Shown piece after piece: positions 2,621 to 41,354 of a stretch of 64,000 nucleotides of DNA (positions are counted from its first letter, which is position 1; every line of letters starts with the position of its first letter). The position numbers were made by a program, and so were the translations under genes. The notes beneath the pieces were generated by a model. The model was given only the letters and a program-made list of their open reading frames with translations. It had not been told where the DNA came from and made no database searches. Location: positions 6,342 through 70,341 of the forward strand of contig JAIFWI010000001.1 in assembly GCA_019661945.1 (NCBI GenBank). The letters are read 5' to 3'. This DNA is from Candidatus Parcubacteria bacterium. GTDB taxonomy: Bacteria > Patescibacteriota > Minisyncoccia > Phycocordibacterales > JAKAEA01.

Positions 2621-3856
2621 ATGTCGTCTTTTTCAAAACGATTCGCAGCTGTGGTTATTGGTGCTGCTCTAGCAGCCAGTTCTTTTATTGCTGGGGCCTA
2701 TTATGGCACTCGCCAAAGTTTTGCTCTTGAAGATTTTACCGGTGGTATTTCAAATAAAGAACTTGCGAAACCCAATGGTGTTGATTTCGCTCCTTTCTGG
2801 CAGGCCTGGAATATTCTGAATGATCGGTATGTGCCTACAAAAAAGAGTGCCTCAACGACACCAACCACGGACCAAGCAAAAGTCTGGGGCGCAATTAAGG
2901 GATTGGCTGAAGCTTACGGTGATCCATACACTACTTTTTTCCCACCACAAGAAGCATCGGATTTTAAAGCAGAAATCAGTGGTGCTTTTGAGGGAGTGGG
3001 CATGGAGGTAGCGATCAAAGATAATATCTTAACGGTTGTCGCTCCTCTAAAAAACACACCCGCCCAAAAAGCAGGCCTTAAGCCGGGGGATAGGATTCTT
3101 AAAATCAATGATTCGATTACCGCCAAATTAAGTGTTGAAGAAGCTATTCGCCTGATGCGTGGTAAAAAAGGAACGGAAGTTCGTTTAACTATTTTAAGTG
3201 CTGAAGCGAAACAACCGAAAGAAGTAAAAATTGTTCGTGATACTATTTCTATTCCAACACTTGATACAGAAAAGCGGGCTGATGGTATCTTTGTTATCAA
3301 GCTCTACAACTTCTCGGCAAATTCAGCCAATCTTTTCCGTAATGCTCTCGAAGAATTTGCACGTTCTGGTAGCAATAGGCTTGTCCTTGATCTCCGAGGT
3401 AATCCTGGAGGATATCTCGATGCTGCTCTTGATATGGCTAGTTGGTTTTTGCCAAAAGAACAGATTGTTCTTCGCGAAGATTTAGGTGACGGCAAAGAAG
3501 AAATCCATTACAGCAAAGGCTATGATATTTTCAATAACAATTTGAAAATGGTCATTCTTGTTGATGGTGGTTCTGCCTCAGCCTCAGAAATTTTAGCCGG
3601 TGCTCTTCAGGAACATGGTATTGCCTCACTTGTCGGTGCAACAACATTCGGTAAGGGTTCTGTTCAGGAGTTAGTAAACTTAACACCTGAAACGGCTTTG
3701 AAAATTACTATCGCCCGATGGCTGACCCCAAAAGGCAATTCCATTTCAGAGCAGGGCCTGAAGCCGGATGTTGAAGTGAAGGTGACTGAAGAAGATGTCA
3801 AAAATCAAGTTGATGCCCAAATGAATAAGGCTGTCGAACTATTAAAAGCTAGATAA
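2621..3856 (+). CDS. ctpA: Carboxyl-terminal processing protease (S41 peptidase, PDZ domain)
   Basis: Signal/TM MSSFSKRFAAVVIGAALA; PDZ (GLKPGDRILKINDS); S41 motifs LVLDLRGNPGGY and ILVDGGSASASEI...TFGKGSVQ. Start moved to ATG 2621 (track ORF has a non-homologous upstream extension). Confidence 0.85.
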   Translation: MSSFSKRFAAVVIGAALAASSFIAGAYYGTRQSFALEDFTGGISNKELAKPNGVDFAPFWQAWNILNDRYVPTKKSASTTPTTDQAKVWGAIKGLAEAYGDPYTTFFPPQEASDFKAEISGAFEGVGMEVAIKDNILTVVAPLKNTPAQKAGLKPGDRILKINDSITAKLSVEEAIRLMRGKKGTEVRLTILSAEAKQPKEVKIVRDTISIPTLDTEKRADGIFVIKLYNFSANSANLFRNALEEFARSGSNRLVLDLRGNPGGYLDAALDMASWFLPKEQIVLREDLGDGKEEIHYSKGYDIFNNNLKMVILVDGGSASASEILAGALQEHGIASLVGATTFGKGSVQELVNLTPETALKITIARWLTPKGNSISEQGLKPDVEVKVTEEDVKNQVDAQMNKAVELLKAR

Positions 3857-7493: not shown

Positions 7494-7507
7494 GACTTAA
7501 AAAACAA

Positions 7508-7538
7508 AACCCCGTACCGTAAGGTGCGGGGTTTTGTT
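7508..7538 (+). terminator. Intrinsic terminator (ccccgtaccg taagg tgcgggg + U-run)
   Basis: 10-bp GC stem with one G-U wobble, followed by TTTTGTT. Confidence 0.7.
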
Positions 7539-9001: not shown

Positions 9002-9478
9002 ATGAACTACTGGCTTTTGAAAATTGAGGCGGCTTGCTTTTCAATCGATGATATGAAAAGGGAAAAGAAAGTGCCCTGGACGGGTATTAGGAATTATCAG
9101 GCTCGGAATTTTATGCGAGACAAGATGAAAGTAGGGGACTTAGCACTTTTTTATCACTCGAGTGCTGATCCAACAGCTGCGGTTGGTGTGGTGAAAGTAG
9201 TAAGTGAAGCATATCCTGACCCAACCCAGTTTGATAAAAAAGATGATCACTTTGATCCGAAAGCAACTAAAGAAAAACCAATGTGGTCTGTGGTTGATGT
9301 CCAGTTTGTTAGAAAATTTAAACAACCAATCTCGCTCCATCAGATGAAAATTCGACCTGATTTAGTTGGTATGTCTGTCACTCAAAAGGGAAGCAGGCTG
9401 TCTGTTTTGCCTGTCTCAGAGAAGCATTTTAAAATAATTGAGGAATTGGGTAATAAAATAAGTAGCTTCGCAGCCTAG
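9002..9478 (+). CDS. EVE (PUA-like) domain protein
   Basis: MNYWLLKIEAACFSIDDMKREKKVPWTGIRNYQARNFMRDKMKVGDLALFYHS... matches EVE/thymocyte-nuclear-protein-1 fold. Confidence 0.7.
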   Translation: MNYWLLKIEAACFSIDDMKREKKVPWTGIRNYQARNFMRDKMKVGDLALFYHSSADPTAAVGVVKVVSEAYPDPTQFDKKDDHFDPKATKEKPMWSVVDVQFVRKFKQPISLHQMKIRPDLVGMSVTQKGSRLSVLPVSEKHFKIIEELGNKISSFAA

Positions 9479-9546
9479 CAAAAATTGCAAGGTCCTCGGG
9501 TCTCCTGCCTTCGGCAGGCCAGACCATTGCAATTTTTGCTAGGCCG
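9472..9546. repeat. REP-like palindromic element copy 1: conserved 38-nt GC hairpin core (aggtcctcgggtctcctgccttcggcaggccagaccat) centred in a perfect AT-rich palindrome (ctagcaaaaattgca / tgcaatttttgctag); probable bidirectional terminator
   Basis: Core contains cctgc-C(UUCG)G-gcagg tetraloop hairpin extended by ggtct/agacc; flanked by A-run and T-run; second near-identical core at 29077-29114 with different palindromic flanks. Confidence 0.55.
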
Positions 9547-9610
9547 CTTCGCTTGTAACAGATTCAACATTTAACCGTCTAAAATTCTGTTATTCATTAA
9601 ATGACGTGTT

Positions 9611-10132
9611 ATGAAATATGGATTTACCTGCAGCGCTTTCGACCTCTGCCACGCTGGGCATATGCTCCTATTTAAAGAAGCAAAACGAAATTGTGACTAT
9701 CTAATAGTAGGACTTCAAGAAGATCAGTCGGTTGATAATCATATTAATATGCAATACAGAGGTAAGCTCAAACCTCAGCCGATTATGTCATTGGCAGAGC
9801 GCAAAACTATTCTTGAAGGCATAAAATATATAGATGAAATTTTTGTCTATCGTGATGAAAAAGATTTGTATAAAAATATTCAGAGACTAGCCAAAGAGGG
9901 GAAGTATCAGATTAGATTTATTGGTGATGATTACAAAGGTAGACATTATACCGGTGATGATATTGCCCATGAAATTTACTATGTTAGCCGCGATCACGGC
10001 TATTCAACCTCAGCATTACGTCAGCGCGTATACGAAGCCGAAAAGGCTCGCCTCGAATCTGAAGCGCCTCAAGAATCAAAGCAAAAAGCTCCAGTACCAC
10101 CACTTGGCTCTCTTAAAATCGCTAATGCCTAA
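9611..10132 (+). CDS. Cytidylyltransferase-like nucleotidyltransferase (TagD / RfaE domain II family)
   Basis: GFTCSAFDLCHAGHMLLFKEAK = (T/H)xGH nucleotidyltransferase motif; 173 aa with charged C-tail. Confidence 0.7.
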   Translation: MKYGFTCSAFDLCHAGHMLLFKEAKRNCDYLIVGLQEDQSVDNHINMQYRGKLKPQPIMSLAERKTILEGIKYIDEIFVYRDEKDLYKNIQRLAKEGKYQIRFIGDDYKGRHYTGDDIAHEIYYVSRDHGYSTSALRQRVYEAEKARLESEAPQESKQKAPVPPLGSLKIANA

Positions 10133-28696: not shown

Positions 28697-29050
28697 ATGG
28701 TGTATACATATACTATGACAACTGAAATTCAACTAGAGAATTCTAAGGCTCAAATGCGCAAAGGCATTTTAGAGTTCTGCATTTTACTTATTATTGCTCG
28801 CGGTCGAGTGTATGCATCTGAAATTTTGACGGAATTACATAAAGCAGACCTTATTGTTGTTGAAGGTACACTCTATCCCCTACTAAGCCGTCTTAAGACT
28901 GGAGGGTATTTGAGCCACACTTGGGAAGAGTCAAAGTCAGGTCCGCCGAGAAAATATTATACGCTGACAGAAAAAGGTGAGGAGTTTTTAAAGGAGTTGA
29001 AGGAGACATGGGGCAATTTATCACAATCAATTAAATCATTAATGAAGTAA
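28697..29050 (+). CDS. PadR-family transcriptional regulator
   Basis: LEFCILLIIARGRVYASEIL...EGTLYPLLSRLKTGGYL...RKYYTLTEKG winged-HTH PadR signature. Confidence 0.8.
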   Translation: MVYTYTMTTEIQLENSKAQMRKGILEFCILLIIARGRVYASEILTELHKADLIVVEGTLYPLLSRLKTGGYLSHTWEESKSGPPRKYYTLTEKGEEFLKELKETWGNLSQSIKSLMK

Positions 29051-29060
29051 AGCTAAAGAA

Positions 29061-29130
29061 GTTATAGAAATTTTTAGGTCCTCGGATCCCCTGCCCCCGG
29101 CAGGCCAGACCATAAAAATTTCAATAACTT
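29061..29130. repeat. REP-like palindromic element copy 2: same 38-nt GC core (aggtcctcggatcccctgcccccggcaggccagaccat) centred in a different AT-rich palindrome (gttatagaaattttt / aaaaatttcaataac)
   Basis: Core differs from copy 1 at only 5 of 38 positions (mainly loop); flanks unrelated in sequence but again form a near-perfect inverted repeat. Confidence 0.55.
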
Positions 29131-29151
29131 CTAACGCTTAACAAAAATAAC

Positions 29152-30846
29152 ATGAAAAAAGCATTACAAATCACCATAGCCGGCACCCTCTTCACAATAG
29201 AAGATGACGCCTATGCAAAATTAGACGATTATTTGCAGTCAATTAAGAAATATTTTTCAACCTATCCCGACAATGCCGAAATTTTGCAAGATATTGAAGC
29301 GCGCATTGCGGAGAGATTATTGGAAAGCATTAAAGAGACTCACGATATTGTTACTATTGATGTTGTTAAAAATGTCGTCAGTGCTATGGGTACGGTTGCT
29401 GACTTTGCTGACGCTACAGGCGAAAAAAGTCAGACTGAGACCTCATCTTCAGATGGAATGCCAATGAAAAGACTGTATCGAAACCCAGAAGATGTTGTTA
29501 TTGCCGGTGTTGCTTCAGGAATTGGTGTCTTTTTCGGTATTGATCCTCTCATCATCAGGGTTTTGTTTGTTATTCTTGCCTTTGTTACTTCAGGTGCAGT
29601 GATTTTGGTCTACATTATCCTTGCTTTGCTCATTCCCAAGGCCCAAACTGCGGCTGAAAAAATTCAAATGAAGGGTGGACCAATGACCCTCAATTCTTTT
29701 CGCGAAAATGTTCAGGAACATGTTGATACAGTTAAAACAAATGGTACCGAGTATCTTGGCCATCGCTCAAAATTACGCACGGTGCTTAATAAAATATTCA
29801 GTATCTTCGGCATCATAATTCGTACTGCTCTAAAAATTCTTATTGTAGTTATTGGTACGGCTTTGATTCTGGGAGCAGCCTTTGGTCTTATTGCCGGCAC
29901 CTTTGCATTCATTAATCTGACATTCAATGTTCACTCACCGTATGTTGAATTTCCTGTAGCCGAAGTTCTTGGTGGTCCACTCTATTACTTCATGATTACT
30001 CTAGGGTATGTCCTCCTAGTCATTCCCCTAGTCTTCATCGCTACCATTGGCATGAGTTTCATCCGTCGCAAAAAGACTCTTGGTATGCAATCAACACTGA
30101 GCCTAGGTGCTGTTTGGATTGTAGCTCTTCTCATTGCTGGTACGCTTTCTGTTCGCTACATTCCGGAAACACACGAGAAAATTTTGGCCTTACCACAATA
30201 TCAAGTTATGTCTAAGACTGAAGACTTGAAAGGCTTTAATAAACTTGAGCTTCACGGCATTGATAGTGTTCACCTTACTCAAGATGATACGTATTCAGTC
30301 TCTGAGCGCGGCCGACAAATTGATGTTGAGCGAGTTCAGTTTACCGTTCAGGATAATACTTTAATTTTGACTCAGCGATCTCGAGAAAAAATGTGTTTCT
30401 TCTGTCTTGGCCGCGAGCGGGTTGATATTAGTATTACCATGCCTGATATTCAGGCTATCGAAACGAGTGGTGCTATTTCCCTTTCGGCAGATGAGCTTAC
30501 GACCGAATCTCTGAGCCTGACATCAACGGGTGTTTCATCCATAGAACTAGATTTAGAAACTAAAGCCTTGGTTGTTGATCAAAGTGGGGCTACTAGAATT
30601 AATATTGAAGGTTCATCGCCTGTGTTGAAAGTTGAAGCTTCGGGTGTTGCTCGATTCAATGGCCAGAATTTTGCCGTCCAATCAGCAACGGTTGATACCT
30701 CCGGAAACACAGAAATAAAAGTGAATGCTGCCAATTCTTTGAATGTCTCTGCCAGCGGTGTCAGTGAAATTTTGTATCGTGGCACACCCAAAATTACCGA
30801 GGATCTTTCAGGTCATGCTCGTATTCGTCAATTCTCGGAAATGTAA
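29152..30846 (+). CDS. PspC-domain membrane protein with C-terminal DUF4097/DUF2807-like beta-helical (putative adhesin-like) domain
   Basis: RLYRNPEDVVIAGVASGIGVFFGIDPLIIRVLFVILAFVT = PspC domain; repetitive C-term S/T-G beta-strand repeats. Confidence 0.7.
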   Translation: MKKALQITIAGTLFTIEDDAYAKLDDYLQSIKKYFSTYPDNAEILQDIEARIAERLLESIKETHDIVTIDVVKNVVSAMGTVADFADATGEKSQTETSSSDGMPMKRLYRNPEDVVIAGVASGIGVFFGIDPLIIRVLFVILAFVTSGAVILVYIILALLIPKAQTAAEKIQMKGGPMTLNSFRENVQEHVDTVKTNGTEYLGHRSKLRTVLNKIFSIFGIIIRTALKILIVVIGTALILGAAFGLIAGTFAFINLTFNVHSPYVEFPVAEVLGGPLYYFMITLGYVLLVIPLVFIATIGMSFIRRKKTLGMQSTLSLGAVWIVALLIAGTLSVRYIPETHEKILALPQYQVMSKTEDLKGFNKLELHGIDSVHLTQDDTYSVSERGRQIDVERVQFTVQDNTLILTQRSREKMCFFCLGRERVDISITMPDIQAIETSGAISLSADELTTESLSLTSTGVSSIELDLETKALVVDQSGATRINIEGSSPVLKVEASGVARFNGQNFAVQSATVDTSGNTEIKVNAANSLNVSASGVSEILYRGTPKITEDLSGHARIRQFSEM

Positions 30847-34278: not shown

Positions 34279-34358
34279 TGCGCCGGTGACGAAACAGGTA
34301 TCTGTTTTGTGAATAGGATGTCTTTCGAGATTTACGGGTTCGAATCCCGTCCGGCGCA
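34279..34358 (+). tRNA. tRNA-like element: intact 7-8 bp acceptor stem and canonical T-arm (ACGGG-TTCGAAT-CCCGT), 6-bp/4-nt D-arm-like hairpin, UUCG variable hairpin, but no canonical anticodon arm (possible pseudo-tRNA / island attachment site)
   Basis: gcgccgg...acgggttcgaatcccgt ccggcgc a; GTTCGAATC T-loop perfect; interior 47 nt cannot form standard anticodon stem-loop. Confidence 0.35.
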
Positions 34359-35838: not shown

Positions 35839-36108
35839 ATGAAAAGGTTTTTGCGGTTTTTGGTTCATGAGCCAATCTTCAAGTTCCTGCCGAAATTTCT
35901 GACCTGGGCCATGTTTGTGATGGTAGCAATACTCGTCCTTGGTGCGCTTCAGGATAATCGAGTTGCTCAAGACATCGTGGATCGACCGGGTGCGATGTTG
36001 ATGTATGTCATTGTTGCGCCAACAGGTGTTGTCTTGATTTCCGCCATTTTTGAGATGTTGTTGGTCATTCCGAAGTACCGGCGCTACTGCCGGGATGGTT
36101 ACTGCTAA
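35839..36108 (+). CDS. Small 2-TM membrane protein, paralog A (GC-rich module)
   Basis: GGAGACAAT-ATG RBS; MKRFLRFL...IPKYRRYCRDGYC; paralogous to 36611..36928. Confidence 0.5.
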   Translation: MKRFLRFLVHEPIFKFLPKFLTWAMFVMVAILVLGALQDNRVAQDIVDRPGAMLMYVIVAPTGVVLISAIFEMLLVIPKYRRYCRDGYC

Positions 36109-36125
36109 GCGAAAGGAGCTCGACA

Positions 36126-36313
36126 TGTTTCATTTGATCGCTGAGCACTGGGTGCTTACGCTATCGATCCTGTGGTTTGTGGCGGTGCTTCTGTCCATCG
36201 TAATCTGCATAGCCGTAAAGTGTCCAAAGTGCGGTTGGTGGCCAATGGGCAGAAGAGGGCATACCTTCCACTGCCTGTGGTGTGGTCATCAGTTCGAAAA
36301 AAAGACCAGTTAA
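36126..36313 (+). CDS. Small membrane protein with C-terminal zinc-ribbon (CPKC...CLWC)
   Basis: AAAGGAG RBS 7 nt upstream; TM helix then CxxC-x13-CxxC. Confidence 0.45.
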
Positions 36314-36315
36314 TC

Positions 36316-36344
36316 AAGCCCGTTCCACTGGAATGGGTTTTTTC
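36316..36344 (+). terminator. Intrinsic terminator (cccgttcc actgg aatggg + U6)
   Basis: Hairpin + TTTTTT; near-identical copy with compensatory changes at 36932-36960. Confidence 0.65.
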
Positions 36345-36447
36345 TTGTACAAATTTTGGTCTAATTCTTAATTTGACTTCCCACAGAGATATTGTAGCCT
36401 TTAGGTAGATAGCCAAAGGGGTCTTTTACAAGCCAGGAGATCGGCCT

Positions 36448-36597
36448 ATGATCCAATTGAAGCCGGGTGCAGGCAGGATGCGGGATTGCATCATAGCCGC
36501 GATTGTACTTGCGGCTGTATTGGGTACTGTAGTCTACCTTACGTACCGTCCCAACGTAGATTGGGATGAGTCCCTCATCAAGACAGTGTCCCCTTAA
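36448..36597 (+). CDS. Very small hydrophobic ORF (49 aa)
   Basis: MIQLKPGAGRMRDCIIAAIVLAAVLGTVVYLTYRP...; single TM; immediately upstream of paralog C RBS. Confidence 0.25.
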   Translation: MIQLKPGAGRMRDCIIAAIVLAAVLGTVVYLTYRPNVDWDESLIKTVSP

Positions 36598-36610
36598 AAA
36601 GGAGTCTCTG

Positions 36611-36928
36611 ATGAAGAAGTTTCTGAAGAATTTCTTTAGTTTCCTGAGGACGGAAGAGGTGCCCGATGCAATGCTGATAGTCTTGATCGCCCTGGCGGTA
36701 GTTGGAACGCTCATGCTCGTCAGTGGAAATTTGGCCGGTGACCGAGCCTCGCAGCTCATTATGAGCAACCTCGCGAGCAGCCTAATCGTTTTGTTTGGTA
36801 TCCCAATTCTCGGGGCTGCTGCGGTAGGCATTCTGATGACGCTCTTCAAGATTCCGAAGTACCTACGCTACCGCAAGGAAGACAGGCTACTGCTAGAAAG
36901 GAGTCGATTCACAAAAGAGATCAGTTAG
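36611..36928 (+). CDS. Small 2-TM membrane protein, paralog C
   Basis: AAAAGGAG RBS; MKKFLKNFF...IPKYLRYRKED; shares N-term MK(R/K)FL and ...IPKY(R/L)RY with paralog A. Confidence 0.5.
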   Translation: MKKFLKNFFSFLRTEEVPDAMLIVLIALAVVGTLMLVSGNLAGDRASQLIMSNLASSLIVLFGIPILGAAAVGILMTLFKIPKYLRYRKEDRLLLERSRFTKEIS

Positions 36929-36931
36929 TCA

Positions 36932-36960
36932 AGCCCGTTCTACCAGGATGGGTTTTTTGT
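36932..36960 (+). terminator. Intrinsic terminator (cccgttcta ccagg atggg + U6), duplicate of 36316 terminator
   Basis: agttagtcaagcccgttctaccaggatgggtttttt vs agttaatcaagcccgttccactggaatgggtttttt: stem changes are compensatory. Confidence 0.65.
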
Positions 36961-37009
36961 TTGACTAACTATTAAGAATGTTGTAATTTATTAGTAGACC
37001 GAGGGGAAT

Positions 37010-37324
37010 ATGGATTCCCTGCCTTATGTTAAGGAGAAGCTCATGAAGCGATCCGAAGACACCAGAACTTACGGAGATGAACACGGCCGGGTCATTCCCC
37101 ACCTGTTCCTGACGAATTCTGCGCTTTGGCCGCCACGGCTTGTCGAGGCGCTCAAAGACCAGATGCGTCTGACACCAGACGAATGCAAGCGGCTCAAGCT
37201 TGGAACGGCCCAGCGACAGGAGTTTGATCAACTCGTTCGGCTCTGGCACGCTTTTGGCGGAGCACAGGAAGCTGAGCAATTCATTCACACTCAATCCGGC
37301 CTAGGCGCCTTTGCCGGCGACTAG
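37010..37324 (+). CDS. Hypothetical soluble protein (104 aa, GC-rich)
   Basis: GAGGGGAAT-ATG RBS; followed by strong terminator. Confidence 0.4.
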   Translation: MDSLPYVKEKLMKRSEDTRTYGDEHGRVIPHLFLTNSALWPPRLVEALKDQMRLTPDECKRLKLGTAQRQEFDQLVRLWHAFGGAQEAEQFIHTQSGLGAFAGD

Positions 37325-37354
37325 AAGCTTTAAGGCAATATCACGAACCCGCTG

Positions 37355-37399
37355 AGCCCGTCCGCGACAACATTTGTACTGTCGCAGGCGGGTTTTTTC
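37355..37399 (+). terminator. Intrinsic terminator (12-bp GC stem + U6)
   Basis: cccgtccgcgaca acatttgtact gtcgcaggcggg tttttt. Confidence 0.7.
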
Positions 37400-37451
37400 T
37401 TTGTCGCAATTTTCTTGCAATTATTGCTTTTATGGTTAGTATTACTTCAGA

Positions 37452-37477
37452 GCACCTGTGTAGGTGCCTGTTTTTTG
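37452..37477 (+). promoter_or_regulatory. Hairpin + U-run in purL leader (gcacct gtgt aggtgc ctg UUUUUU): possible attenuator/second terminator
   Basis: Lies 35 nt upstream of purL ATG, 55 nt after the preceding strong terminator. Confidence 0.3.
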
Positions 37478-37511
37478 ACACGAACGAAAACAACAAACAA
37501 AGGAGGCACAA

Positions 37512-40500
37512 ATGCCACCAATCTATCGCTTCTATCGACAAGTGAGTGAAGATCTCGAATACGGCTTCTACGTTGAGGCCAGCGAGTTTCTGGACGCCGG
37601 AGAGTATCTCCGGCTTGAATGGATCATCGCTGAGACATTTGAACCGACGATGACTCGCCCGGATTCCATCTGGTTTCCGGCCGAAGTCATCGAAATCGGT
37701 CCGCGGCTTTCGATCGAGACTCCGTTCTCATCGAATGCAGTGGCAATTTGTCACAACGCAGGTTTGACCAAGGTCACTCGCTTCGAACGCACTCGCCGCT
37801 ATCGCCTGGCCCCGGGCCAGTCAGTGGCGGATGTGCTCGAAGCCAACCTCGATCGAATGACCGAGCAGCACTATCCCACTGGGATCGTGAGCTTTGAAAC
37901 CGGCCGTAAGCCGGAAGGTGTGCGGGAAATCGATGTCATCGGCAATCCGATCATCGCTCTCCAGAACGCCAACAAAGAGCTTGGCCTTAGCATGGATGCC
38001 AGGGATCTTGCCTATTATGAAGAACTCTTCGCTGACACTCTCGGTCGAAACCCGACCGATGTCGAGCTCCTGAAGCTCGGCAACGACAACAGTGAACATA
38101 GCCGGCACTGGCTCTTCAGAGGAATGCAGATCATCAATGGTGTACGGATGTCGAAGACTCTCTTCGAACTTGTCCAGGAACCGCTGAAGCGGCTCGGCGA
38201 CAACAATGTCAGCCTGGTCGCATTCAGAGATAATGCCGGAGTGATTAAAGGCTTTTGGACTGAGGTGCTGCTGCCGGAAGATCCGGGCCAGCCATCAGTA
38301 CTTCGCCTGACTCGAAAATATGTCCACAATACCGACACGGCCGAAACGCATAATCATCCGACTGGTGTTGCAGCTTTCCCCGGTGCTCAAACAGGTGCCG
38401 GCGGACGGATTCGCGACAACAGTGCGGTTGGATGCGGCGGTCTTCCCGGAATCGGAGTGGCCGGATATTTTGTCGGCAATCTCTTTATTCCAGGGTACCA
38501 GATACCCGGAGAGAATGTTGGACATGACATGCCGTCGACGTACGCCTCACCGCTCACGATTCTTGTCGAGGGCTCAAATGGCGTCACATCGTACGGTAAT
38601 GAATTCGGCGAACCATTGACCCTTGGCTTCACCCGAAGCTTTGGTCAAATGGTTGACGGCAAATGGCGTGAACCGCGAAAGCCGGTGCTCTACAGCGCTG
38701 GTATCGGTTCTATCTTTGATGAACACGTCAAAAAGGAAAAGGCCGAAATCGGCATGCTCATCGTGCGCATTGGCGGCCCGGCTTACCCCATTGGGGTCGG
38801 CGGCGGCAGTGCCTCAAGCATGATGCAAGGTTCGAATACCGAACAGCTTGATTATAATTCCGTTCAACGCGGCAACGCTGAGATGGAAAATCGAGCCAAT
38901 CGAGTCATTCAAGCTTGTGTGGAAATGGGCAGCGAAAATCCCATTTCGAGCATTCACGACCAAGGCGCTGGCGGTCCGAGCAATGTTTTGACGGAGCTCG
39001 TCGAACCGCTGGGCGGCAGAATCAACATTCGCAACATTGTTCTTGGCGACAAGACGATGTCAATCAGAGAAATCTGGTGCGGCGAATATCAGGAAGGCTA
39101 CGGTTTCCTTATCAGAAAAAATCGGATCGAATTTTTCCAATCGATCTGCCAACGTGAGCGGGTTAATTGTGAAATTCTCGGAGAAATCGACGGCAGCGGT
39201 AAAATCGTTGTCGAAGATCCCGATACCGGTACAACGCCGGTAGATCTCAACCTCGACCAGATCCTAACGAAGATGCCTCAAAAGACGTTTGAATCACGAC
39301 GCCAAGAACTGAAGCTCGAACCTCTGGCCCTGCCGGATGTCAGCATCAGTGAAGCAATCAAGGCCGTGTTCAAACTTCTGCAGGTTGGTTCAAAGAATTT
39401 CCTGACAAGCAAAGGTGATCGAAGTGTCGGCGGCAAGGTCGCTCAGCAACAGTGCGTCGGCATCGCTCAGATTCCGATCGCTGACTTCAGCGTCCTAGCC
39501 CAAAGTCACTTTGGTCTGACCGGTGCAGCAGGCTCGATCGGTGAACAGCCGATTAAGATGCTCATTAATCCGGCTGCCGGAGCTCGGATGGCCGTCGGTG
39601 AAATGATTCTGAACATGGCTGGTGTCCGCATTAGTAATCTCGGCGATATTCGTTGTCGGGCAAACTGGATGTGGGCGGCTAAGCTCGAGAACGAAGGCGC
39701 AAACCTCTACGATGCAGCTGTGGCCGCGACCGGTCTCTTGACCGATCTTGGTGCGGCGATTGATGGGGGTAAAGACAGCCTGACGATGGCTGCACGAGTT
39801 CATGGCCATCTGGTCATTGCGCCTGGACAATTGGTGATGCTTGGAACGGCTCCCGTGCCTAACATTACCAAGAAGGTCACCCCTGACATCAAGAAGCCGG
39901 ATGGAAGTTTCCTCTGTCTGATTGATCTCGGTGGTGGCAAAAATCGCCTCGGCGGCGGAAGCTTAGCCCAGGCTAACAACCAAATTGGCAATGAATCACC
40001 TGATGTCGAAAGTTCGCTGCTTCTCAAGAACACGTTTCTTGCGGTTCAGCAGATGATTGACGAAGGAGTGATTCTGGCCTATCACGATCGAAGCGATGGC
40101 GGTCTTTTCACTACCGTCGCCGAGATGTGCATGGCCAGCCGATGTGGCTTTGATCTTCAGGTTAATGATCACCGACATGCTCTGGCTGAACTCTTCAACG
40201 AAGAGCTCGGTGCAGTGATTGAGGTAGCACCGATACACGATAAGCGGGTGCGTGAAATCTGCGAATCGTTTGACGTGCCGATCTCACTCATTGGTGCTAC
40301 GCATGCCGACGGCAAGTGCAGCATTCGAGCGATGTCTTCTGACCATGAGTTGTGGAGTGGCAACATTTCGCTACTGCGTTTGTGGTGGGAGGAGACAAGC
40401 TCGCGGCTTGAAGCTCTGCAGTCGGATCCTGATTGTGCCCGGGCAGAATACCTTGGTCACGTTGACCTTCTGCCTGGAATCAACAGCGCTCCATCATACA

Positions 40501-41354
40501 GACTTCGATTTACACCGGCAGAAACGCCGCCAGAAATTCTCAAAGTCCGAAACAATCCCCGCGTGGCAGTATTGCGCGAGGAAGGTACGAACGGCGATCG
40601 AGAAATGCAGGCAGCATGTTTTGCCGGAGGTCTTGCCGCGTGGGACGTCACCATGAGTGACCTCATCGCAGGCAGGATCGACCTGGACGAATTCCAGGGA
40701 ATCATTTTCGCCGGTGGATTTTCCTTCATGGATGTGCTCGACAGCGCCAAGGGCTGGGCAGCAACAATTCGCTACAACACGCGTGTGCGCGAAATGTTTG
40801 CTCGCTTCTATGGCCGTAAGGACACCTTCTCACTTGGTGTCTGCAACGGTTGTCAGCTCATGGCTCTGCTTGGATTAGTTCCACTCGAAGATCTCCAGGC
40901 TGATATGCAGCCGAGATTTGTGAGGAACGAGTCCCGTCGCTTTGAGTCTCGTTGGGTTCAGGTAGAAGTTTTGCCAAGCCCGGCGATTCTCCTTCGCGGC
41001 ATGGAAGGTTCGAAACTCGGTGTCTGGGCTGCCCATGGTGAAGGCCGACTGGTATATCCAAGCCAGACGGTAGCGGATGTGGTGCGTTTGAGAAATCTTG
41101 CGCCCCTCGCCTTCCTCGATCCCCATGGCAATCAGACTGAAGAGTATCCTCATAACCCGAACGGTTCGCCGGGCGGGATTACAGCCCTCTGTTCGCATAA
41201 TGGGCGGCATCTTGCAATGATGCCTCACCCTGAACGTTGTTTTCGTTTGTGGCAGTGGCCGTGGATGCCGCCCTCATGGAGTAGCCTCAGCGCTTCTCCA
41301 TGGCTCCGGATGTTTCAGAACGCCCGCACGTGGTGTTTGGAACATTCGAAGTAG
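37512..41354 (+). CDS. purL: Phosphoribosylformylglycinamidine (FGAM) synthase, large single-chain type (PurL with fused glutaminase)
   Basis: 1280 aa; N-domain, FGAM synthetase ATP-grasp-like core, C-terminal class I GATase (GVCNGCQLMALLG catalytic Cys); GC ~56%. Confidence 0.9.
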   Translation: MPPIYRFYRQVSEDLEYGFYVEASEFLDAGEYLRLEWIIAETFEPTMTRPDSIWFPAEVIEIGPRLSIETPFSSNAVAICHNAGLTKVTRFERTRRYRLAPGQSVADVLEANLDRMTEQHYPTGIVSFETGRKPEGVREIDVIGNPIIALQNANKELGLSMDARDLAYYEELFADTLGRNPTDVELLKLGNDNSEHSRHWLFRGMQIINGVRMSKTLFELVQEPLKRLGDNNVSLVAFRDNAGVIKGFWTEVLLPEDPGQPSVLRLTRKYVHNTDTAETHNHPTGVAAFPGAQTGAGGRIRDNSAVGCGGLPGIGVAGYFVGNLFIPGYQIPGENVGHDMPSTYASPLTILVEGSNGVTSYGNEFGEPLTLGFTRSFGQMVDGKWREPRKPVLYSAGIGSIFDEHVKKEKAEIGMLIVRIGGPAYPIGVGGGSASSMMQGSNTEQLDYNSVQRGNAEMENRANRVIQACVEMGSENPISSIHDQGAGGPSNVLTELVEPLGGRINIRNIVLGDKTMSIREIWCGEYQEGYGFLIRKNRIEFFQSICQRERVNCEILGEIDGSGKIVVEDPDTGTTPVDLNLDQILTKMPQKTFESRRQELKLEPLALPDVSISEAIKAVFKLLQVGSKNFLTSKGDRSVGGKVAQQQCVGIAQIPIADFSVLAQSHFGLTGAAGSIGEQPIKMLINPAAGARMAVGEMILNMAGVRISNLGDIRCRANWMWAAKLENEGANLYDAAVAATGLLTDLGAAIDGGKDSLTMAARVHGHLVIAPGQLVMLGTAPVPNITKKVTPDIKKPDGSFLCLIDLGGGKNRLGGGSLAQANNQIGNESPDVESSLLLKNTFLAVQQMIDEGVILAYHDRSDGGLFTTVAEMCMASRCGFDLQVNDHRHALAELFNEELGAVIEVAPIHDKRVREICESFDVPISLIGATHADGKCSIRAMSSDHELWSGNISLLRLWWEETSSRLEALQSDPDCARAEYLGHVDLLPGINSAPSYRLRFTPAETPPEILKVRNNPRVAVLREEGTNGDREMQAACFAGGLAAWDVTMSDLIAGRIDLDEFQGIIFAGGFSFMDVLDSAKGWAATIRYNTRVREMFARFYGRKDTFSLGVCNGCQLMALLGLVPLEDLQADMQPRFVRNESRRFESRWVQVEVLPSPAILLRGMEGSKLGVWAAHGEGRLVYPSQTVADVVRLRNLAPLAFLDPHGNQTEEYPHNPNGSPGGITALCSHNGRHLAMMPHPERCFRLWQWPWMPPSWSSLSASPWLRMFQNARTWCLEHSK

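Follow-up and report, generated by a model that had tools for sequence, protein, structure and literature searches.

Two conserved hairpins in a 64,000-nucleotide stretch of a Candidatus Parcubacteria genome (contig JAIFWI010000001.1; "the window" below is this whole stretch) are probably copies of a small, non-autonomous insertion element of the Parcubacteria/Paceibacteria, which acts as a hairpin at the DNA level, is mobilised in trans and gains its palindromic arms by fold-back synthesis. Only the centre of the element is conserved, as a unit of 33-38 nt (up to ~65 nt in some subfamilies). This unit is dispersed over many unrelated sites, both intergenic and in frame within essential genes, in either orientation, and its presence is patchy among close relatives. 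The arms around it are locus-specific, derive from the local flank and evolve in concert, and the centre between them can flip; shared terminal inverted repeats and a fixed target-site duplication are absent. In the literature that we searched there was no description of such elements in bacteria of the candidate phyla radiation (CPR), and the element is apparently an undescribed small DNA insertion element of the Patescibacteria/CPR.

Copy 1 comprises a left arm at 9470-9489 (gcagcctagcaaaaattgca), the conserved unit AG-GTCCTCGGGTCTCCTGCCTTCGGCAGGCCAGAC-CAT at 9490-9527 on the + strand (covariance model 51.6 bits, E 1.3e-11) and a right arm at 9528-9547 (tgcaatttttgctaggccgc), which pairs with the left arm at 19 of 20 positions, the inner 18 forming the longest perfect run. 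In copy 2 the left arm at 29050-29075 (aagctaaagaagttatagaaattttt) pairs with the right arm at 29114-29139 (aaaaatttcaataacttctaacgctt) at 22 of 26 positions, or with a single mismatch if the arms are taken as 15 nt, and encloses the unit AG-GTCCTCGGATCCCCTGCCCCCGGCAGGCCAGAC-CAT at 29076-29113, again on the + strand (45.1 bits, E 9e-10); no strand applies to the arms themselves. A first-pass annotation of the window had proposed a 38-nt core shared by the two sites and placed between unrelated but perfect inverted-repeat arms. The core is indeed shared, with 34 of 38 nucleotides identical (the differences are G/A, T/C and, in the loop, TT/CC), each core forms the exact centre of its own, different palindrome, and the outer helix does differ from copy to copy; perfection of the arms holds for the inner 18 nt of copy 1 and fails in copy 2. 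No third match to the core was found in the window at up to three mismatches (0 expected in shuffles), a covariance-model search of the window at E <= 10 returned no copy beyond these two, and the left-arm sequence of copy 2 occurs once in the window.

Each copy folds into a single long hairpin, with z-scores of -7.8 (copy 1) and -8.0 (copy 2) on the + strand and -9.2 and -6.3 on the - strand, the - strand giving the more stable hairpin in copy 1. The apex had been described as a C(UUCG)G-capped hairpin extended by ggtct/agacc. The actual cap is a 6-bp stem, CCUGCC/GGCAGG, closed by a 3-nt loop (UUC or CCC), beneath which both copies in their context form GGUC/GACC pairs and a GG/CC step around a 4-nt bulge; the ggtct/agacc extension appears in copy 1 alone, and there only when that copy is folded in isolation. 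The A-run and the T-run of both hairpins lie inside the stem.

When species-representative genomes were scanned for the 3' half of the core (CCTGCCNNNGGCAGGCCAGACCAT), a query that was too specific, one true match emerged, in a Candidatus Adlerbacteria genome (L002; loci are given by our L numbers), besides two chance matches in GC-rich coding DNA (L001, L003). The Adlerbacteria genome carries the full 38-mer, again central in a palindrome of unrelated sequence, and a second, diverged copy within polA. The degenerate pattern GTCCTCGGNTCNCCTN{8,12}GGCCAGAC matched at least 120 metagenome contigs, mostly from groundwater, landfill and lake-sediment samples. Copy statistics below refer to 119 unique copies among the matches listed, including those of the window and of the Adlerbacteria genome, with duplicates removed. 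The unit has the layout 5'-(AG)GTCCTCGG-N-TC-Y-CC, a short variable stem-loop, then GGCCAGAC(CAT)-3'. In 81 of 114 copies (71%) the flanks pair perfectly over 8 nt or more in a row, compared with 0.9% of 3,000 random positions; arm sequences differ from locus to locus, although subfamilies have imperfect "inner arms" of 10-16 nt in common, one of them sharing ~65 nt in total. This material bears out the earlier expectation that the family is repeated, with palindromic flanks, and that its centre is conserved and evidently mobile. To call the family genome-wide was too strong: the flanking DNA, 677 kb in all, holds about 10 further copies, the density being roughly one per 30-80 kb, and a covariance model built from 101 copies and run over these 677 kb of other loci added only two copies outside the search pattern. 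Viral contigs gave no match to the degenerate pattern, BLAST with window positions 9465-9555 gave none in INPHARED phages or PLSDB plasmids, and BLAST of Escherichia coli genomes with a 43-nt family-consensus core (not the window sequence) gave none either.

About half of the copies lie in genes. By a simple gene call, 61 of the 119 fall within long open reading frames (ORFs), where 34 point one way and 27 the other, and 65 copies sit in uninterrupted ORFs of at least 150 aa, where all six reading frames of the core are used. According to Pfam, the host ORFs encode PolA, the NAD-dependent DNA ligase LigA, class I aminoacyl-tRNA synthetases of the IleRS/ValRS/LeuRS type, RecG and UvrB; Tgt is likewise a host. 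Orthologous insertions occur in differing frames and orientations, and the constraint therefore acts on nucleotides and not on a peptide, which rules out a protein-level constraint on the core. An intron or a translational-bypass element is ruled out as the general case, since the frames remain open through the 65 copies and the window copies are intergenic.

Alleles with and without the element differ in a consistent manner. We compared 120 Tgt proteins of the Paceibacterota, which share 77-100% identity with the query (80-87% in nearly all cases). The loop that separates "EHxKL" from "ALFGIVQGG" is empty in some of them, and in others contains this element in either orientation or one of at least five other, unrelated inserts; some alleles carry two inserts, and some hold decayed or internally deleted versions of the element (for example P0136, P0166 and L128). 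At least six unrelated insert types at one site in proteins that are 80-87% identical point to rapid turnover. In the Tgt DNA, the net insert of the filled allele L126 over the empty allele L127 is 69 nt, namely a 36-nt core and a 33-nt right arm; the empty alleles L127 and L128 already have the left arm (ggaaaatcagaaacaagctcg), of which the right arm is an inverted copy. In LigA, the left arm of L025 is native with respect to the empty L055 and the core and right arm are new, and a second LigA site has the reciprocal pattern. The intergenic locus L007 is 88 nt longer than L021, with flanks 90-92% identical, its right arm being native and its left arm new. In all three of these DNA-level comparisons the empty site has no palindrome, one arm of the filled site is native and the other is a new inverted copy; empty palindromic sites, which the first-pass annotation had suggested looking for, were present in none of the relatives examined.

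Copy 2 lies between padR and a pspC/DUF2807 gene, a neighbourhood that is syntenic in relatives, and its entire 90-nt palindrome is absent from L129, L130 and L131. The PadR-PspC spacer measures -4 nt (an ATGA overlap) in L129 and L130, 11 nt in L131 and 101 nt in the window. The closest relative (P0242, 85% identical) was compared by length alone; its contig has a spacer of 38 nt, and the difference of 63 nt from the window equals the unit (38) plus one arm (25). A 24-nt duplication around copy 2 was considered as a target-site duplication and rejected, as it pre-dates the element and is present without it in L131. The search for relatives yielded no close syntenic one for copy 1: L124, the best, is 74% identical, and the regions downstream of the EVE-domain genes in L124 and L125 are not syntenic with the window.

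Once in place, the arms change together. Across 12 pairs of orthologous copies, 24 arm positions have changed on both sides with pairing kept, in agreement with the earlier suggestion that the outer helix covaries. The orthologous intergenic copies L043 and L019 differ by an exact inversion of the whole interior, inner arms and core included, and both sides have changed at 4 of 12 outer-arm positions. L044 and L085 occupy the same IleRS-like gene, one in an AT-rich genome and the other in a GC-rich one; the arms track genome composition and are still largely complementary, except for a 3-nt internal mismatch in L085, and 34 of 35 core positions are identical. Direct repeats around the palindromes have no fixed length (0-7 nt, most 0-3 nt) and are weakly above controls, repeats of at least 7 nt accompanying 2.7% of copies versus 0.5% of controls, and a fixed-length target-site duplication was not found across copies. 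Palindrome 1 is one of those with a 7-nt repeat, GCTTCGC on the + strand, whose left copy straddles the left end of the palindrome (9465-9471) and whose right copy lies at its right end (9546-9552). Similar 7-nt repeats were seen at L005 and L069; most copies have none.

The two strands of the element are not equivalent. On the GTCC strand, arm mismatches are C.T, T.C, A.C, C.A or C.C in 298 cases and G.A, A.G, G.T, T.G or G.G in 55, so that on the opposite strand they become purine-purine and wobble oppositions. In the commonest variant this opposite strand has the centre CC-GA-GC-nnn-GC-GA-GG with tandem G.A pairs; the window copies represent the fully Watson-Crick variant. With both RNA and DNA parameters, the strand opposite GTCC is the more stable one in 109-112 of 117 copies (> 93%). 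As orientation is unrelated to transcription, we read this asymmetry as the mark of a single-stranded DNA intermediate and not of an RNA.

These patterns suggest a possible route of insertion. A trans-acting enzyme would join the unit to its target by recognising the invariant bases on a folded single strand, most likely the better-folding one, GTCTGGCC...CCGAGGAC. The hairpin of the unit would then set a 3' end against the adjacent flank, and fold-back DNA synthesis, self-templated by a template switch, would form the second arm as a copy of 10-30 nt of the flank. When the strand re-aligns with its original template, a short direct repeat of 0-7 nt could sometimes be left behind, and later template switching within the hairpin would keep the arms complementary and occasionally flip the centre. 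These steps are modelled on the established processes of quasipalindrome template-switch mutagenesis and hairpin-primed synthesis. Template switching has also been invoked for coding palindromes (PMC6649704). If the fold-back model is right, the 38-nt PadR-PspC spacer on the P0242 contig should resemble agctaaagaagttatagaaattttt followed by aacaaaaataac. Tentatively, and with the balance of probability on the other side, the element may even represent a new mode of DNA mobility, in which a hairpin "seed" of ~35 nt joins a target strand and builds its own arms by hairpin-primed copying of the flank, producing an inverted and not a direct target duplication.

Several observations weigh against this account. 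We infer the fold-back step from its end products only, and the alleles that have one arm could be remnants of deletions instead of pre-insertion states. The polarity of arm formation is mixed: relative to the GTCC strand, the native arm is on the 5' side twice and on the 3' side once, with flipping as a confounding factor. At the first LigA site (L055/L086 versus L025), in a poor alignment, both short arms look extra. No mobilising enzyme was identified, and the genes that adjoin copies are ordinary, such as prmC in L063. Conservation at pattern positions is partly circular, that is, an effect of ascertainment, because the loci were found with that pattern; independent evidence for the conserved blocks comes only from L126, which was found via its Tgt protein, and from the Tgt protein alignment, both of which uphold the blocks and also include internally deleted versions. 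Finally, the very high conservation of the core across lineages of differing GC content would also fit a selected host function.

This last point leads to an unlikely alternative, in which the core is not selfish but a DNA site selected by the host. A protein conserved in the Patescibacteria would bind or process it, as it might a gyrase site, a nucleoid or segregation site or a signal for single-strand initiation, and the arms would only serve to extrude a hairpin or cruciform. The core is nearly invariant across contigs in which the GC content of the 53-nt element segment spans 35% to 69%, while flanks are 70-85% identical; the low and fairly even density, the consistent single-strand folding asymmetry and the mere two non-pattern copies added by the covariance model in 677 kb would also suit such a site. 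A site that serves the host would, however, hardly come and go as this one does, present in L007 and missing from the near-identical L021 and varying likewise among Tgt, LigA and PadR-PspC orthologs, nor is it easily reconciled with copies that interrupt conserved domains of essential genes, with the decayed or internally deleted Tgt versions or with unrelated insert families in the same hot spots, and the invariance at pattern positions is in part an effect of the ascertainment described above.

The first-pass annotation had itself offered two explanations. One, which we now consider very improbable, was a family of REP-like bidirectional intrinsic terminators (or mRNA-stabilising hairpins) that is selected as RNA. 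The window copies seem at first to fit. The TAG stop (9476-9478) of the EVE-domain gene at 9002-9478 sits within the left arm of copy 1, the left arm of copy 2 begins at the final base of the TAA of padR (28697-29050), and the next genes on the same strand begin at 9611 and 29152, the former closely preceded by an in-frame TGA; both copies are truly intergenic. Many other copies likewise come directly after a stop codon, with genes of the same strand on either side, the stability of the hairpins is very high and arm changes are compensated. Yet a terminator scan of 9300-9700 and 28900-29300 returned 0 sites, neither window hairpin is trailed by a T-run (the following sequences are ttcgcttgtaac for copy 1 and aacaaaaataac for copy 2), and the better-folding strand is antisense to the flanking genes in the window. 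Ordinary terminator hairpins without the core are present in the window, for example at 7503-7538. Across the family, orientation is unbiased with respect to genes, and the intergenic copies that have same-strand genes on both sides divide 14 to 19. Because 61-65 of the 119 copies lie in ORFs, in both orientations, and no T-run stands behind the window hairpins, we do not regard the family as terminators. These genomes have tiny spacers (-4 to 38 nt in orthologous spacers), which explains why copies are so near to stop codons, and any terminating or mRNA-stabilising effect at the window copies would be incidental.

The other explanation was a small mobile core with a specific target, the loop or centre of palindromes (terminators, for instance) that are already in place. 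It is analogous to IS1397 and ISKpn1, which insert in REP loops, and we give it very little credence. It would account for a core that is always at the exact centre, and the outer arms of the 65-nt subfamily do look like terminator stems, as with aaaaagccagaa/ttctggcttttt in L115. It founders on the empty alleles (L127, L128, L055, L021, L129, L130, L131), none of which has such a palindrome, on length differences that amount to the unit plus one arm, and on arms that are equally palindromic inside ORFs, where no terminator pre-exists. A functional RNA from the strand opposite GTCC (a small RNA, a ribozyme, or a hairpin resembling group II domain V or a K-turn) is hardly credible, the better folding of that strand and the tandem G.A pairs with a GCGAAGC-type cap in the commonest variant being outweighed by patchy presence among relatives, either orientation within genes, no promoter associated with the window sites, a bulge that, as read from the sequence, would have to be on the other side of the G.A pairs to make a K-turn, and the outcome of the Rfam search, in which nothing relevant to the core reached the gathering threshold and E <= 10 admitted only microRNA-model noise over copy 1. 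Rfam matches overlapping the core were likewise absent in 20 loci. That the core was copied from a conserved RNA gene is rejected on present data, as none of the tmRNA, RNase P and tRNA genes that lie close to some copies overlaps it.

A hairpin insertion element remains our preferred reading, and we compared it with known systems. The element lacks the defining features of intrinsic terminators, REPs, MITEs, attC sites and any Rfam family. In its way of working it would be most like the Rickettsia palindromic elements (RPEs) and the mitochondrial hairpin or GC-cluster elements, and as a folded-strand signal it may resemble REP/RAYT or attC sites. RPEs are short selfish palindromes that occur between genes and in frame in protein genes without destroying them, as Ogata et al. 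reportedly described in 2000, and we know of no transposase for them. The 65 copies in ORFs of at least 150 aa share this preservation of the frame. RPEs, however, are 100-150 bp long, conserved over their full length within a family, decay with time and are confined to Rickettsia, whereas here only a centre of 33-65 nt is conserved, at the scale of a phylum or class, between arms that come from the local flank and are kept complementary; the absence of a whole-element consensus sets our element apart from the RPE families, a distinction made without comparison to Rickettsia sequences. 

REPs and REPINs, which are mobilised by RAYT, an IS200/IS605-like Y1 HUH transposase, are also short hairpins often sited after genes, with invariant bases that are presumably read in trans on one folded strand. 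They differ in being extragenic, species-specific and present in hundreds of copies, with a 5' GTAG and a stem that is itself conserved, whereas our element has many copies in ORFs, only two copies in the 64-kb window and the same core over many divergent contigs; no RAYT-like gene was seen beside copies, though no systematic search was made. MITEs, which derive from DDE transposases, have conserved terminal inverted repeats and a fixed-length target-site duplication, whereas the arms here are unrelated between copies and direct repeats vary from 0 to 7 nt. Integron attC sites share the imperfect hairpin that acts as one folded strand, the asymmetric unpaired bases and the sequence-variable copies. 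Their architecture is the reverse, however, with conserved outer R/L boxes and a variable centre, and they lie at cassette boundaries beside an integrase, whereas our element lies in housekeeping genes.

Mitochondrial GC clusters, repetitive hairpin-forming elements and the "byps" of Magnusiomyces are GC-rich mobile hairpins whose mechanism of transposition is unknown (PMC2800124; PMC6649704, which also mentions RPEs). Like our element, they invade AT-rich intergenic DNA and sometimes coding regions. They are organellar, however, and have neither a conserved asymmetric centre nor self-made arms, and ribosomes bypass byps, whereas our element leaves the reading frames open. In Nematomorpha mitochondria, coding palindromes are kept by arm-to-arm conversion, and template switching at the fork has been proposed (PMC6649704). 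These palindromes, like the products of quasipalindrome mutagenesis, are perfect inverted repeats inside coding genes and in this respect similar to ours, but they have no shared core and do not constitute a dispersed sequence family.

Other inserts were observed in the same surroundings. The further insert types in the Tgt loop (P0121-P0240) include SFLGSLS..ALTLGSSACE, SHSNLNMVNE, SHSILEGQG, PSPSEWDPRAQK and PLEEYP..., and are probably a whole class of in-frame elements. After the EVE stop in L124, positions 2960-3058 hold a different palindromic element of ~100 nt, with outer arms ggcaagtat/atacttgcc and another centre, and several element families seem to share the EVE-stop site as a hot spot. 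Other centres also occur in long palindromes of 71-119 nt at L126 1295-1413, L127 20563-20650 and L128 7506-7576, one of them between sigma-70 and dsbA genes and one inside a uvrB ORF; the motif AGTCTTCGCT is common to L127 and L124. Paired copies of our element were seen in tandem at L060 2400-2495 (64 nt apart), inverted at L037 739-876 (~70 nt apart) and inverted at L063 4993-5933, flanking prmC; a transposase between the L063 copies was considered and rejected, the gene there being prmC.

Some features of the window itself complete the description. Its EVE and PadR proteins match NCBI proteins of 158 and 107 aa that are labelled Candidatus Parcubacteria bacterium, at 100% and 99% identity. 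Where EVE and PadR homologues bear an organism label, it is Patescibacteria, Paceibacterota or a related group. A non-coding block of ~55 nt at 9553-9607 is ~80% identical to L124 3063-3120 (cttgtaac..attca..ccgtcta..ttctgtta..tca.taaatg) and directly precedes the start of the next gene in both, though the downstream genes differ (cytidylyltransferase-like in the window, UDP-glucose pyrophosphorylase in L124); it may be a promoter or leader. The end of padR at 29040-29050 (..ATGAAGTAA) resembles the start of pspC at 29152-29162 (ATGAAAAAAGC), a duplication that L131 (2845-2877) shares although it has no element there, and the PspC and DUF2807 parts are separate genes in L131 and fused in the window. 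The stretch 36001-40000 has a GC content of 0.52, compared with 0.40-0.46 over the rest of the window, and coincides with purL (37512-41354), a full-length 1280-aa FGAM synthase (PurL) that is unexpected for a Parcubacteria genome; acquired DNA, or a binning or assembly issue, is possible. The sole Rfam match in the window at the gathering threshold is a tRNA at 34280-34358, with a modest score (37.7 bits versus a gathering score of 29).

For annotation practice, hairpins of this kind behind stop codons should not be annotated as terminators. If our reading holds, the element would be a counterpart, in a large uncultivated class of bacteria, to the few selfish palindromes known in protein-coding genes. 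The hypervariable loops of conserved Patescibacteria proteins such as Tgt, LigA, PolA and aminoacyl-tRNA synthetases are hot spots of insertion and loss, which bears on how these proteins are annotated, used in phylogenetics and modelled in structure prediction. Arms that derive from the flank speak for insertion by a hairpin-primed or template-switch route, and the invariant core offers a handle for finding the responsible enzyme. Were the new mode of mobility true, the element would have spread over a whole bacterial class, essential genes included, without terminal inverted repeats, fixed target-site duplication or a linked transposase, and the core would be the recognition site of a Patescibacteria-specific single-stranded DNA enzyme, be it of the HUH type, a tyrosine recombinase or a reverse transcriptase.

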